Virus record (IMG/VR): IMGVR_UViG_3300023174_004998
Location: 1-64,000 of that record
DNA: 64,000 nt
Reading direction: 5' to 3' (one strand)
DNA from: a virus
Shown here: positions 644-8,165 of the stretch, piece after piece
Layout of the letters: each line of letters opens with the position of its first letter
Position numbering within the stretch: the stretch's first letter is position 1
Program-made: the position numbers and the translations under genes
The notes under the pieces: generated by a model
Database searches by the model: none
The model's input: only the letters and a program-made list of their open reading frames with translations
What the model was told of the DNA's origin: nothing

Positions 644-677
644 CAAAAAACCCTACACAAGGTAGGGTTTTTGTTTT
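644..677. terminator. Intrinsic (probably bidirectional) terminator after the dctP-like gene
   Basis: AAAAACCCTAC-ACAAG-GTAGGGTTTTT inverted repeat with A/T tracts on both sides. Confidence 0.75.
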
Positions 678-690
678 GCTTGTCTACCTA

Positions 691-1647
691 TCAAGCCTTT
701 TTGATGCGTTCAATGAGATTGTCACCAAAAGTTGATTCAAACTCATCATACACCACTTGCATACGAGCTTTCATGTCTGCTGTTTCTTCAGCAGTGGGTT
801 CGTATACACTCTTGCCTTCGCTGATCAAACGGTCACGAGCTTGTTCGCCATCAACGATGGTAGTCTGACGCTCATTGCGACCTGCTTGGATAGCGGCTGT
901 CTTGATCACAGCACGAACTTCGTCGCTGAGGCTGTCCCAGAAACGATCACCAATGATCATTGTGGTCAAGAACAAACTGTGTTTGCTGTCTACCACTGAC
1001 TGGATTACGTCATTCTGGCTCAATGGATAGATACGGCTATAAACTGTGTCATTGCCGTTGCAGTTACCGTTGGCAACATGCTCACGTGCTTCTTCTGTTT
1101 CGCACACAAATGGCTCAACACCACTCATGGTACGGATCACAGCACGACCCACTGGGTTACGATTTGAACGCAGTTTTTCACCAGTCAAATCACTCAATGT
1201 GCTCACTGGCTTGTTTACGCCCAAGCAACGGAAGCCGCCTGAGTATGTGTAAGCAAGTCCACGAACATTGCTGTTGTCTGTGAGTTTGGCCAACAATGTT
1301 TCGCCAACTTCACCTTCCAACACACGGCTAGCATGCTCATGGTCGCTGAAAATATAAGGCATTTCAAACGCCAAGAAGTCATGTTCATAGTGTTCAGCCA
1401 ACCAAGTGGTGTACATTTGACTCATTTCGATTTTGCCAGCTTCCATCAAGTCTAACAAATCGTGCTTGGTAACCACAATGCCATCATTATACTTGGCACT
1501 GTATTCATTCAGCGTCATTACTTCAATTTCAATTTTTTCGGCTGATTGTTGTGCATTGATTTCTTTTTCAAAATCTTGTGCGGCACGTACAAACAAGCTC
1601 AATGGTTCGTGGGCTATAACCCAACGAATTTTAGTTGTTTTGCTCAT
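691..1647 (-). CDS. TRAP-type substrate-binding protein (DctP family), no signal peptide
   Basis: FEMPYIFSDHEHASRVLEGEVG, GGFR, DLTGEKLRS, FWDSLSDEVRAVIKTAA motifs typical of DctP; N-terminus is not hydrophobic. Confidence 0.8.
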   Translation of the reverse strand: MSKTTKIRWVIAHEPLSLFVRAAQDFEKEINAQQSAEKIEIEVMTLNEYSAKYNDGIVVTKHDLLDLMEAGKIEMSQMYTTWLAEHYEHDFLAFEMPYIFSDHEHASRVLEGEVGETLLAKLTDNSNVRGLAYTYSGGFRCLGVNKPVSTLSDLTGEKLRSNRNPVGRAVIRTMSGVEPFVCETEEAREHVANGNCNGNDTVYSRIYPLSQNDVIQSVVDSKHSLFLTTMIIGDRFWDSLSDEVRAVIKTAAIQAGRNERQTTIVDGEQARDRLISEGKSVYEPTAEETADMKARMQVVYDEFESTFGDNLIERIKKA

Positions 1648-1677
1648 TTTAAATGAACTCCTGTTTAACTTAATATT

Positions 1678-1788
1678 GCTTGCGATAAATCGCGTACGGA
1701 CGGCGTTCTAGGCATATCATGCTAGTAAAAGGGTAAACTACCCTAGGCGTCTTTGTATCCGGCGTCGATCACCTGACCGGCGCTGCCA
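1678..1788 (-). ncRNA. Riboswitch-like cis-regulatory RNA, copy A (5' UTR of dctP-like gene)
   Basis: Same conserved cores (GCARCGCC, GACGYCGG, GACGCCT, ACGCC, CCGTA, AGC) and the same four-hairpin layout as 2737-2850. Confidence 0.65.
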
Positions 1789-1791
1789 TTT

Positions 1792-2706
1792 TTATTTATC
1801 CAACACAACACCTTGTGTTAGACGTTTCCATTGCACTAACTGTGAATTAAACCAGTTGTCCAACTGTGCGTCGGGCATTTGATTGTTGGGTACACAGTTG
1901 TCAGCGGCATTGGCATCGCGTACACTTTGAGCACGACTAGCTTCTACCAGTACTTTACGTATGCTGGCAAAGCGGTCTTCGCTGAGTTTACGGCTGGCAA
2001 AAATCTGCTGTGGTGTGCTCATATCCAACAAGTCCTTGCTAAAACCTTGATTGGCCAGCAATTCTGTGCCTTTGATGCTGTTGCGGCCAGTTTGCCCAAG
2101 CCAATACACTTGTTTAGCAGATCCAGGACCTGTGTACTGTTCGCTGTCACCGTGGAATCCCACTGAAAAATCCACTGATCCGTTGAGTACGCCCAGCAAA
2201 GCTTCGCTGGTGCTCTTGAATGGTACGATGTTTAAATTGGGGTAATTTTTAGCAATTTGAATACTGACCAAATGTGTAGTAGTTCCCATGCCGCTCATGC
2301 CAATTGATAGCTTGGCATCTTTGGGCACTTCTTTCCAGTTTTTGTATTTGACACTGCTGATCACAAACGGGCTCACACACATAGGCAGGATGCTACGAAA
2401 ATCCGCCATGCTGTGGCTGTCATTTGGGAACAAGTTGGGTCGAATAAATCCAGCAGAACTGTTGATCCACAGTGTGTTTGTGGGATTATTGTTGGTAAAG
2501 TTTGCGGCCACAGTACCTCCAGCGCCTGGCTTGGTGTCAAACAAAAATGTGTATTGATTCTGTAATTTGTTTGCTTCAGCAACCAAGGCTCGGTAGAAGT
2601 TGGCTGCATTGTCACCAGCACCCCAACTATAAGCCAGTGTGATGGATTCTTTTGCTACTGCGTTGATACTTAAAGTTGCCAATAAAATGGCCATGAATTT
2701 TTTCAT
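1792..2706 (-). CDS. Tripartite tricarboxylate transporter substrate-binding protein (Bug/TctC family)
   Basis: Signal peptide; KPGAGGTVA, SGMGTTTHL, VPFKSTSEALLGVLNGSVD motifs. Confidence 0.8.
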   Translation of the reverse strand: MKKFMAILLATLSINAVAKESITLAYSWGAGDNAANFYRALVAEANKLQNQYTFLFDTKPGAGGTVAANFTNNNPTNTLWINSSAGFIRPNLFPNDSHSMADFRSILPMCVSPFVISSVKYKNWKEVPKDAKLSIGMSGMGTTTHLVSIQIAKNYPNLNIVPFKSTSEALLGVLNGSVDFSVGFHGDSEQYTGPGSAKQVYWLGQTGRNSIKGTELLANQGFSKDLLDMSTPQQIFASRKLSEDRFASIRKVLVEASRAQSVRDANAADNCVPNNQMPDAQLDNWFNSQLVQWKRLTQGVVLDK

Positions 2707-2736
2707 GTTAATTTTCCTTTTTAGTTTAGTTTGGCA

Positions 2737-2850
2737 GCTCGTAGAGAACTCTACATACGGTATGGCGTCAACAGTGTCTACACTGATAAAGGATTGATTT
2801 CTCCAGGCGTCATTAAATACACCGACGTCAACATGATGTTGGCGTTGCTA
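2737..2850 (-). ncRNA. Riboswitch-like cis-regulatory RNA, copy B (5' UTR of Bug gene)
   Basis: Homologous to 1678-1788, with different hairpin sequences that keep base pairing. Confidence 0.65.
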
Positions 2851-2875
2851 GATTTTACTTAGTACAGTCCCGATA

Positions 2876-3805
2876 TCAACGTAATTTTTCTATGCCAGCC
2901 TGCTGTCTCACAGCTTCCCAGCGTTGGTATTGGCGCTGTATCCACTGTTCAGGATCTTGCACTGGACGACCCAGTTCTAATCCCAGGGCCTGCACACTGT
3001 TTCTGTAGGCTTCGCTTTCATTGAGACTGCGCAAAGTATTCAGCATCAATGCTTTGTCTCTCAGTGGAGTGTCTTTGCGCACAGCTACACCGTACCAACT
3101 GTAAAAACTAAATCCAGGAAGCACCTTTGAAAACAGTGTAGCTGACGGCACAGCAGGATTTGGAGAGTCGCTACTCACTGCCAATATTTTTAACCGGCCG
3201 CTGTTGTGAAATTGCAGTTGGCTTTGTATTGTGTCAAAGCTACACTCAATGGTGCCACTCATCAAGGCAGTGCTGACTTCACTGGCGCCTTTGAAGTTCA
3301 CGATTTCTACTTGTGTAAGACGCAGTTGTGACACCACATACTTGGTCAAAAACAGTGCTCCACTGTTGCTGACTCCGCAGTTGATGGGTTTGGTTCTGGC
3401 TTGTTTTATAAAATCCTGGAAGCTGGTGATACCGCTCTGGTTGCTGACCACTAGCACACTGGGACTTTGTGTCATAGGCAACACCATGTCAAAGTCTTTG
3501 ATTTGGTAACCAGGATCTTGATAAACCACATGATTAAACAAAAATGGCCCTGTGGCTGCCATCAACCAGGTATTGCCATCAGCTGGACGATCCAACACAT
3601 AGCGCACACCAACTCTGGCATCAGCGCCTGGTTTGTTGACCACTATTGTAGATATTTTGCTGTCTTCTTGCAGATGTTTTTGTATTATCCGTGCAAACGA
3701 ACTGACTACACCGCCGGGTGCATAAGGGCTGACCAGTTCTTTGACATCATTGGCCTGTGCTGACATGGCCATCAGTGCTGTAACTAATGATAGAATAAGT
3801 TTCAT
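2876..3805 (-). CDS. Second Bug/TctC-family substrate-binding protein
   Basis: Signal peptide; PYAPGG, VVNKPGA, PADGNT, FKGASEVSTALMSG, GRLKILAVSS, WYGVAV motifs. Confidence 0.85.
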   Translation of the reverse strand: MKLILSLVTALMAMSAQANDVKELVSPYAPGGVVSSFARIIQKHLQEDSKISTIVVNKPGADARVGVRYVLDRPADGNTWLMAATGPFLFNHVVYQDPGYQIKDFDMVLPMTQSPSVLVVSNQSGITSFQDFIKQARTKPINCGVSNSGALFLTKYVVSQLRLTQVEIVNFKGASEVSTALMSGTIECSFDTIQSQLQFHNSGRLKILAVSSDSPNPAVPSATLFSKVLPGFSFYSWYGVAVRKDTPLRDKALMLNTLRSLNESEAYRNSVQALGLELGRPVQDPEQWIQRQYQRWEAVRQQAGIEKLR

Positions 3806-4337: not shown

Positions 4338-5522
4338 TTAGAATTTAAAATGCAAATTGGTTCCTGGATCTTCAAAGTCTGCTTCACCTAGATAGTAAAA
4401 GGGACTGATAAATCCCACCAGGCCCACCGGACGACCCATTTCATTGTTGAAGAACTTGGGATCAATGTTGTCTGTGAGATATCGCAAACCGCTCTGCCAC
4501 ACACGATACGCATGAGTTTCTCGGAAGTTGACATAAAACCAGTAGTCCATTTCATTGTAGAAACTGTTGGTAGGTTTGGCAGTCTGGAATGTTGTAGGAT
4601 CATAATCAGGGTAAATCAAGGGCTTGACAATGTGTTCAAAAGCTGTGCGTTGTGTAAAGTTATAGTTGGGCCAACGTACCAGATGTTGTAGATATTTGTT
4701 GGTTTCAAGATTAAACCAGTTCTTGATCACATGAGCTTGTTTGATTATCATTTCTGGCAGATCAGGGCTCCAAAAAAAGTATTCGTTTGAAGCATTGGTA
4801 TAGCCAGCAAGATCTGGGTTGGCAGCATTGGCCTGTATGTCCATGAAATATAGATACCACTTTTTATCCTTGACGCAGACCTTGGGCTTGTCTACTCCCC
4901 AAAGTACACACACTCGCAGACCTTGGTCCAGTGTGCGTTTGTGATCGTCCACAGCATCTACAGTGTGTTTGAAAGGATGCCCTGGTTGAAAGTAATCTCT
5001 GGTTTTAAACACCCAAGACTCATCGTGCGTACTGACCAGCATGTCTTCGCTGTAGTCATGTATGGTGATTTTGGTTCTAGGGCTTTGCACAGATATCCAG
5101 TTTAACAATGGCAAGGCCGCATATTTTGCTTCACTGAGAGTGTTTTCAGGCTTGGTGTTGAAAGGGTCGTCGGCTACATTCTTTTCACCAGTTTTGGGAT
5201 AACGAAATACCACTTCATCTAAGTGTATGCCATTGTTGATAAAAGCATAGGCCACTGTGGCCGAGTCCGCGCCGCCGGAAAATTCCAGTCTGATATAGTC
5301 ATAACGGTCACGGATCTGTTGTGCTCGCATACGATACAGATTTTGTAAATCAGTACCAGGCTCAATGGAAGCATCTAAACTGGAAAATAATTCTTGGTTG
5401 AAATTCCACTGTGGGAATTCACCGGTAGTAGTGGCTTCTATCAAGGCTTCGGGTTTTGAATAAAACCTTTTTTGACCTACTGTGTAGAAACCTAATTTGG
5501 GATTTTGTTCTAGGAGATTCAT
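4338..5522 (-). CDS. PP-loop (adenine nucleotide alpha-hydrolase-like) ATPase, unknown substrate
   Basis: LEFSGGADS PP-loop and GVDKP motif; lacks the C-terminal QueC zinc-binding Cys cluster. Confidence 0.6.
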   Translation of the reverse strand: MNLLEQNPKLGFYTVGQKRFYSKPEALIEATTTGEFPQWNFNQELFSSLDASIEPGTDLQNLYRMRAQQIRDRYDYIRLEFSGGADSATVAYAFINNGIHLDEVVFRYPKTGEKNVADDPFNTKPENTLSEAKYAALPLLNWISVQSPRTKITIHDYSEDMLVSTHDESWVFKTRDYFQPGHPFKHTVDAVDDHKRTLDQGLRVCVLWGVDKPKVCVKDKKWYLYFMDIQANAANPDLAGYTNASNEYFFWSPDLPEMIIKQAHVIKNWFNLETNKYLQHLVRWPNYNFTQRTAFEHIVKPLIYPDYDPTTFQTAKPTNSFYNEMDYWFYVNFRETHAYRVWQSGLRYLTDNIDPKFFNNEMGRPVGLVGFISPFYYLGEADFEDPGTNLHFKF

Positions 5523-8090: not shown

Positions 8091-8165
8091 TGGTGGGCCT
8101 ACTAAGAATTGAACTTAGACTCAATCGATTATGAGTCGACTGCTTTACCATTAAGCTATAGGCCC
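8091..8165 (-). tRNA. tRNA with CAT anticodon, most like tRNA-Ile2 (lysidine type); encoded CCA
   Basis: GGGCCTA/TAGGCCC acceptor stem, TGGTAAAG D-loop, TCGA-CTCATAA-TCGA anticodon arm, TTCAATT T-loop, ACCA end; anticodon arm resembles bacterial ileX. Confidence 0.9.

Follow-up and report, generated by a model that had tools for sequence, protein, structure and literature searches.

The window, that is, the entire 64,000-nucleotide stretch analyzed here, covers positions 1 to 64,000 of a 96.5-kb IMG/VR record (IMGVR_UViG_3300023174_004998), which was judged to be 26% complete and encodes a DNA polymerase nearest to those of the Atu_ph07/Phosso/CBB/GAP32/121Q group of T4-related jumbo phages (42-50% identity). 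The genes at the window's left end are all located on the minus strand, and among them two genes for TctC/Bug-family solute-binding proteins are followed by a DctP-family gene, after which a hairpin-plus-U-run terminator closes the module (Table 1). The TctC/Bug protein encoded next to the DctP-family gene begins with MKKFMAILLATLSINAVA. The N-terminus of the DctP-family protein is MSKTTKIRWVIAHEP, as in all its relatives from phages, and these proteins lack the signal peptide that the neighboring Bug proteins have; they would stay cytoplasmic, unlike canonical TRAP binding proteins. One metatranscriptome run yielded two small contigs, both inside the DctP ORF (1234-1637). The window further contains a tRNA, and in several phages tRNA arrays lie directly upstream of the element described below.

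Two of these genes, the DctP-family gene and the TctC/Bug gene preceding it, are each headed by a structured leader RNA on the gene-sense strand, denoted copy A and copy B, respectively. Both were scored with a covariance model built from homologs and describing the full form (R1) and with a core-only model (R2), neither of which detected a third copy in the 96.5-kb record. The promoter-like box of copy A is formed by the last codons of the upstream gene, Asp-Lys-stop (window 1792-1800, minus strand), and an x-Lys-stop ending is kept in many relatives.

Table 1. Coordinates of the leader RNAs and adjoining features in the window, and of tRNA arrays adjoining the element in other loci (prefixed L)
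Feature	Position	Strand	Remarks
Copy A leader RNA, full six-helix form	1673..1791	-	R1 112.1 bits, E 6e-26
Copy A, helix P0	1785-1787 with 1677-1679	-
Copy A, helix P1	1762-1783	-
Copy A, helix P2	1758-1761 with 1697-1700	-
Copy A, helix P5	1682-1693	-
Copy A core three-way junction	1702..1751	-	box3 GACGCCU, P3, UUUA, P4, box4 AACGCC; R2 67.6 bits
TAAATA late-promoter-like box, copy A	1793..1798	-	overlaps stop codon of upstream TctC gene (GAT AAA TAA)
Copy B leader RNA, weaker copy, short P3	2732..2853	-	R1 74 bits, E 2e-16
Copy B core	2764-2811	-	R2 39.3 bits
Copy B promoter region	2852..2879	-	degenerate late box TAAGTA (2856-2861) overlapping sigma-70-like TTGATA-16-TAAAAT; consensus matches only
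DctP-family gene	691..1647	-	PF03480 E 5.5e-40; NF037995 TRAP_S1; 25 nt downstream of copy A
TctC/Bug-family solute-binding gene with signal peptide	1792..2706	-	PF03401 E 3.6e-7; 25 nt downstream of copy B
Second TctC/Bug gene	2876-3805	-
Hairpin-plus-U-run terminator closing the module after the DctP gene	646..672
tRNA	8094-8165	-
tRNA array adjoining the element	L084:857-2217	-
tRNA array adjoining the element	L111:6-238
tRNA array adjoining the element	L194:58-954

The whole window, searched against Rfam 15 at the gathering threshold, returned only one tRNA; positions 1500-3000, with E-values up to 10, gave only noise at 14-18 bits, and 18 homologous loci, with E-values up to 0.1, only tRNAs and noise. 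The Rfam 15 families not matched include manA, wcaG, PhotoRC-I/II, Polynucleobacter-1, ykkC/guanidine, preQ1 and ribozymes. A blastn search of the locus against the GenBank phage collection produced no match, and no published description of the motif was found in the literature searched, the incomplete coverage of which makes this weak evidence. The element is a new class of structured, putatively cis-regulatory leader RNA, an orphan riboswitch candidate, absent from Rfam 15 and from the literature searched. Protein relatives of DctP and TctC led to 61 IMG/VR loci, most of which have the element directly upstream of the gene, and a gene-independent DNA pattern for the core added 119 further IMG/VR stretches. 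About 71 of these are real, and about 46, which form no hairpins, were discarded as chance matches; among 48 pattern stretches with no R1 match at E 0.01, two (L071 and L148) are real core-only forms. Removal of duplicates left 100 distinct sequences, that is, a family of at least 100 members in IMG/VR. The leaders observed in the window belong to this family of jumbo-phage elements.

The RNA, about 115 bases long, contains six helices (P0-P5) that are backed by the covariance model and a structural alignment of 85 distinct sequences (mean pairwise identity 63%, range 44-98%). P0, a helix of 3 bp in which G-C is replaced by A-U in five sequences and C-G by U-A in three, closes a four-way junction of P1, P2 and P5. 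In turn, P2, which consists of CGG/CCG and a variable extension, bears a three-way junction formed with P3 and P4, the strands of which are box3 (GACGCYU), UUUA and box4 ((G)AACGCC). The segments GACGC and ACGCC and a C.A mismatch in lower P1 (C12.A33) are invariant in 85 of 85 sequences; the UUUA junction strand is invariant as well. Among the 85 homologs, 93.5% of the paired cells hold a pair, compared with 73.8% in shuffles and 26-46% with slid partners; changes on both sides were observed in 29 of the 30 pairs (604 such cells overall), and none of 500 shuffles reached any of the pairing measures. The alignment was guided by, and fitted to, the model; plain MAFFT alignment already showed the covariation in P1 and P3. 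The column pairs with the highest mutual information are all model pairs, and no pseudoknots or extra pairs beyond the modeled helices emerged from mutual information. In P1, P3 and P5, the sense strand has 55 G-U cells versus 4 A-C cells, indicating that the folded strand is the mRNA strand. The predicted minimum-free-energy folds are no more stable than those of shuffles (z -0.19 and -1.31), so that the structural case is a comparative one, built on covariation. We regard it as almost certain that the element is a genuine functional structured leader RNA.

These results bear on most of what had been proposed in a preliminary description of the locus. The two look-alike leaders with a common ordered plan on the minus strand are borne out by the sequence and by R1, and the gene assignments, DctP-like and Bug, agree with the profile matches. 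The pairings CGGTC/GATCG in one copy and CAACA/TGTTG in the other correspond to P1, and GCGA/TCGC and GTAGAG/CTCTAC to P5. The proposed long-range helix (CGGAT/GTCCG versus CGGTGT/ATACCG) is real as well and corresponds to P2, but across the family only CGG/CCG is conserved, with a fourth pair in about 45% of the sequences. The element had been presented as duplicated; the two copies exist, but they represent a family spread across many jumbo phages rather than a local duplication. That no known riboswitch was recognized is matched by the Rfam 15 result, and the homologs, modeled by covariance as that description had envisaged for the two copies, show covariation among the 85 distinct sequences together with a consistent 5' leader location.

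The base of P1 (RCGCC with GACGY) matches box4 with box3 in sequence, with a single difference, an A.C instead of an R-Y pair. Given this identity, box3 and box4 are probably a second copy of the P1-base duplex; as judged from the sequences, box3 probably pairs with box4 in an RCGCC/GACGY duplex with a C.A mismatch. The sole variation occurs in L013 and L015, where box3 G is changed to A together with box4 C to U, and because this covariation comes from a single lineage, the pairing is put forward as a proposal. The invariant junction strands probably form a pocket. Variation of the overall architecture was observed as well: seven short forms lack P2 and P5 while keeping P0, P1 and the core; L071 and L148 have nothing but the core, which a 7-8 bp helix closes; and L085, L155 and L086 contain two complete cores in tandem inside P2. 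These short, core-only and tandem-core variants show that the 50-nt three-way junction (box3-P3-UUUA-P4-box4) is the autonomous functional unit. In two of the tandem-core leaders (L085:250-285 and L155:345-380, both on the minus strand), the linker that joins P2 to the first core contains an additional small hairpin (GUUUC...GAAAC).

The position of the element relative to the promoter-like box and the downstream gene is equally regular. An nnTAAATA box, most commonly prefixed by TA, AC, GA or AA, is present in 92 of 93 members, and in 81 of 93 its end lies 5-6 nt upstream of the G in the 5' GCA (P0). The corresponding distance is 6 nt in copy A and 7 nt in copy B, rather than the 8-10 nt originally reported. 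The orientation is always the same, and the end of the element lies a median of 25 nt from the start codon. Within the window, TAAATA favors the coding strand by 17 to 5 and is situated just upstream of genes. A T4-type late promoter would call for a TATAAATA-like box near -10 together with a late sigma factor of the gp55 type present in the phage; for a relative, CBB, both a gp55-like factor and a predicted late promoter, ATAAATA, have been described (PMC5259590). By these sequence features, the element is predicted to be transcribed from a T4-type late promoter. Transcription in T4 starts about 6 nt after the late-promoter box; given the spacing found here, the transcript would begin at P0 or one base before it, with its 5' end tucked into the fold.

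The segment between the element and the ORF was inspected for further signals. In L150, L078, L116, L141 and L170, it contains a sigma-70-like promoter, and the element lies 60-80 nt from the ribosome site; the genes at these loci would be expressed early without the leader and late with it. These promoters are near consensus (TTGACA, 17 nt, TATAAT; for instance, L150:4620-4688 on the minus strand and L078:1619-1699). No terminator separates the element from the ORF in the window, and inspection of the spacers, which are variable, revealed no conserved anti-SD pairing. Two candidate devices were rejected: a leader peptide, given that the 6-codon ORF exists in the UGGCAG subgroup only, and sequestration of the SD by the 3' strand of P3 (CCUUU), which is not general, being absent from P3 helices of the GACAU/AUGUC type.

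The carriers of the element are giant lake (freshwater) phages. Five jumbo phage genomes in IMG/VR (315-357 kb, 89-100% complete) contain one or two copies each, and no copies beyond these were detected in the near-complete relatives (R1 in five, R2 in four), which indicates that the element is gene-specific and no general late leader. In bacterial genomes, the strict pattern, run over 185,579 species, hit only two MAG contigs, and the model added a third in one MAG. These contigs, L184 (6,987 bp) from a Polynucleobacter MAG and L185 and L194 from a Haliscomenobacter MAG, are short or unplaced and resemble phage loci; they are probably phage fragments, likely carried over during binning, and possibly hint at the hosts. 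In 150 genomes from the family to which the Polynucleobacter MAG belongs, a single match of 27.9 bits was found and rejected because all boxes are missing. At the end of L193, there is a sub-threshold beta-tmRNA-like match (22.8 bits, E 0.0034). As far as searched, the element is phage-specific.

To describe the associated genes independently of the protein-based collection, we used the 68 cases found by the gene-independent pattern. In 37 of the 68 (54%), the downstream gene encodes a solute-binding protein, with four transporter types represented: TctC (19), DctP-like (12), ABC SBP_bac_8 (3) and NMT1-like SBP (3). The others are a PP-loop-like family (6), hexapeptide acyltransferases (4), porins, TauD of the 2OG oxygenases group and DUF2061 (3 each), radical SAM proteins and an unknown-B family found behind the core-only form in L071 and L148 (2 each), TctA, Trp halogenase, fatty-acid desaturase and Asp/Arg hydroxylase (1 each), and unnamed singletons (4). 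Thus, the earlier suggestion that the element controls transport-binding genes holds for about 54% of an unbiased sample, but the element is not tied to such genes, the remainder being varied. The PP-loop-like family, which follows the leader in six phages (among them L139:6752-7894 and L066:1442-2356), is homologous to the window ORF 4338-5522 (34% identity, E 5e-57), and this ORF stands first in the gene run that also includes both Bug genes and the DctP gene. Accordingly, the element marks a recurring uptake-plus-tailoring module, any gene of which it can precede. The product of the window ORF (minus strand, 394 aa) has an SGGADS PP-loop-like motif, and its sole Pfam signal is a weak match to QueC (E 0.099) restricted to the motif region. 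No variation of the core by downstream gene class, which might have hinted at different ligands, was detected; the core is identical throughout, and this constancy argues for one common signal.

In one subclade (L027:3001-3960, L028:2998-3960, L032, L034, L036-L039 and L041), the leader is followed by a DctP-like gene that is broken into two ORFs near residue 156-161, with an overlapping stop/start (AAATGA) or with the second ATG just upstream of the stop, in frame +1 or +2. Because the split recurs in many metagenomes, it looks like a real, translationally coupled binding protein in two pieces and not a sequencing error.

What the element does is a matter of interpretation, for which we considered several possibilities. 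We tentatively favor, with a probability of roughly 45%, the view that this new cis-acting leader-RNA family of T4-related jumbo phages works as a riboswitch-type sensor. The element is a conserved, structured, aptamer-like RNA with covarying stems and conserved junction nucleotides, and its box spacing, 25-nt median distance to the start codon and G-U bias point to a sense-strand 5' leader location. A sensor of a small molecule or ion is ranked first because the invariant junctions amid freely varying stems, a pattern typical of ligand pockets, the autonomous core that also occurs in tandem, the ability to travel between genes and phages unaccompanied by any linked regulator gene, and the very small number of targets per genome all resemble riboswitch aptamers. 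The fixed position behind the late-promoter box and the coherent gene set, dominated by solute-binding proteins and served by an identical core across classes, fit this view as well. Against it, no expression platform is visible, the intervening sigma-70-like promoters would let part of the expression bypass the element at some loci, and the mixed gene functions permit no ligand to be deduced; furthermore, the thermodynamic signal is weak, leaving covariation as the support, the box3:box4 pairing comes from one related sequence pair, and a dimeric protein would be just as well served by the repeated duplex module.

This last point leads to the main rival, which we consider rather unlikely: a translational or stability operator whose two identical RCGCC/GACGY duplexes with C.A mismatches, one at the P1 base and the other formed by box3 and box4, would be recognized by an RNA-binding protein of phage or host origin, perhaps dimeric, with repression or activation of the downstream gene as the outcome. 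In its favor, a single 5-bp module occurs twice with invariant sequence; the four ACGCC-like boxes and the lack of an expression platform are compatible with such an operator, and tandem cores would fit multi-site binding as well. Moreover, T4 uses protein-bound leader operators, namely those for RegA, gp32 and gp43. However, the element has moved among unrelated genes and phages, and no neighboring regulator gene is conserved along with it; one or two targets per 320-kb genome would be a small regulon for a dedicated protein, and six helices with about 35 near-invariant positions are more complex than typical protein operators. The absence of a platform is also compatible with an element that binds no signal, a constitutive 5'-terminal structure that, as part of a portable promoter-leader cassette, would guard the late mRNAs of newly acquired genes against 5'-end-dependent decay or raise their translation. 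P0 would pair the very first transcribed bases, and promoter and leader always travel together before many different genes, but a plain stabilizer needs only a 5' hairpin, whereas the tandem cores and the unpaired junction strands, 100% invariant among sequences that are 44-98% identical, point to specific recognition, and we regard this explanation as improbable.

The two remaining candidates fare worse. A processing element, such as a self-cleaving ribozyme or a nuclease entry site, could cut read-through transcripts and give the downstream cistron its own 5' end; the location between co-directional genes with no terminator and the complex conserved junction would agree with this, and several small ribozyme classes are common in phages. 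We nevertheless deem it very improbable: there is no match to any Rfam 15 ribozyme family, and with the element's own predicted promoter 5-6 nt upstream, most transcripts would carry nothing to remove. DNA-level operator repeats for a transcription factor, or an RNA on the antisense strand, are suggested by the four GACGCC-like direct repeats and by the antisense strand of copy B, which folds better than shuffles (z -3.13). Yet the stems covary although their sequences differ, with abundant compensatory changes, G-U far exceeds A-C on the sense strand, and the orientation is fixed relative to promoter and ORF; this alternative, of which the preliminary description had named the operator repeats, is effectively excluded.

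Under the riboswitch-type sensor reading, the late promoter would transcribe the leader such that the first two or three transcribed bases are already in P0, and a single signal, shared by all regulated genes, would be bound in the junction pocket. Ligand binding would stabilize the fold and with it the weak P0, in which the 5' end is hidden, and the stabilized fold would set the lifetime of the mRNA and/or the translation of the downstream gene late in infection; an output via Rho or RNases is also conceivable. The regulated set would be a nutrient-capture and tailoring module comprising Bug/DctP binding proteins, porins, the PP-loop-like enzyme and oxygenases. A stronger and more speculative version, to which we give less credence than to the riboswitch-type sensor in general, holds that this is the first jumbo-phage-only riboswitch class, in which a three-way-junction aptamer, single or in tandem, reads one metabolite reporting on host state or pathway and gates a late nutrient-capture module with no protein regulator. 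Candidate metabolites might include a carboxylate of the Bug/DctP/PP-loop module, a 7-deazapurine intermediate or a second messenger.

Structured leader RNAs that are similarly conserved have mostly proved to be riboswitches or other specific sensors. To our knowledge, very few structured leader RNAs of such conservation are known from phages, and none from jumbo phages. The present family would reveal how host-derived genes for nutrient uptake (Bug, DctP, ABC binding proteins, porins) are regulated in a giant phage, and the element marks a coherent, uncharacterized gene module. More than 100 variants, a small autonomous core of 50 nt and natural tandem forms make it well suited to ligand hunting and structural work, and it could serve as a compact late-promoter-plus-leader part for phage engineering and as a sequence marker of this phage clade in lake metagenomes.

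Among known systems, tandem aptamers are an established riboswitch architecture, exemplified by the glycine and guanidine-II riboswitches, and the present core, autonomous and found singly or twice in one leader, is similar in this respect. Guanidine riboswitches have ACGR boxes, which the ACG-containing boxes of the present element recall, a lead only; the latter, however, are of the form ACGC(C/U), are located in junctions rather than tetraloops and have no Rfam match, and ligand binding is putative. Phage-specific cis elements in leaders include the operators of T4 (RegA sites and the gene 32 leader pseudoknot) and PeSL cassettes, which, like the present element, stand before shuffled accessory genes; a unit of promoter plus structure is common to the PeSL-type mobile cassettes of T4-type phages and the present element. 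The T4 operators, however, are short and bound by known proteins, and PeSL combines an early promoter with terminator hairpins, whereas the element described here follows a predicted late promoter and is an RNA of 115 nt with several junctions.

The nearest precedents are manA and wcaG (RF01745 and RF01761), riboswitch candidates of T4-like cyanophages located upstream of auxiliary metabolic genes (Weinberg et al. 2010, PMC2864571). They too are structured orphan 5'-leader RNAs borne by T4-related phages, in which they precede auxiliary metabolic genes with various functions, and they are known mostly from metagenomes; they belong to marine cyanophages, whereas the present element resides in freshwater jumbo phages. 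The present element matches neither of them in sequence or structure and folds differently, into a four-way junction that bears a three-way one. With one or two per genome, the copy number of manA and wcaG is the same as in the present family. Unlike both, the present element is fused at a fixed distance to a predicted late promoter, and it differs from them also in the genes that it precedes, with the binding proteins of TTT, TRAP and ABC transporters forming its own set.
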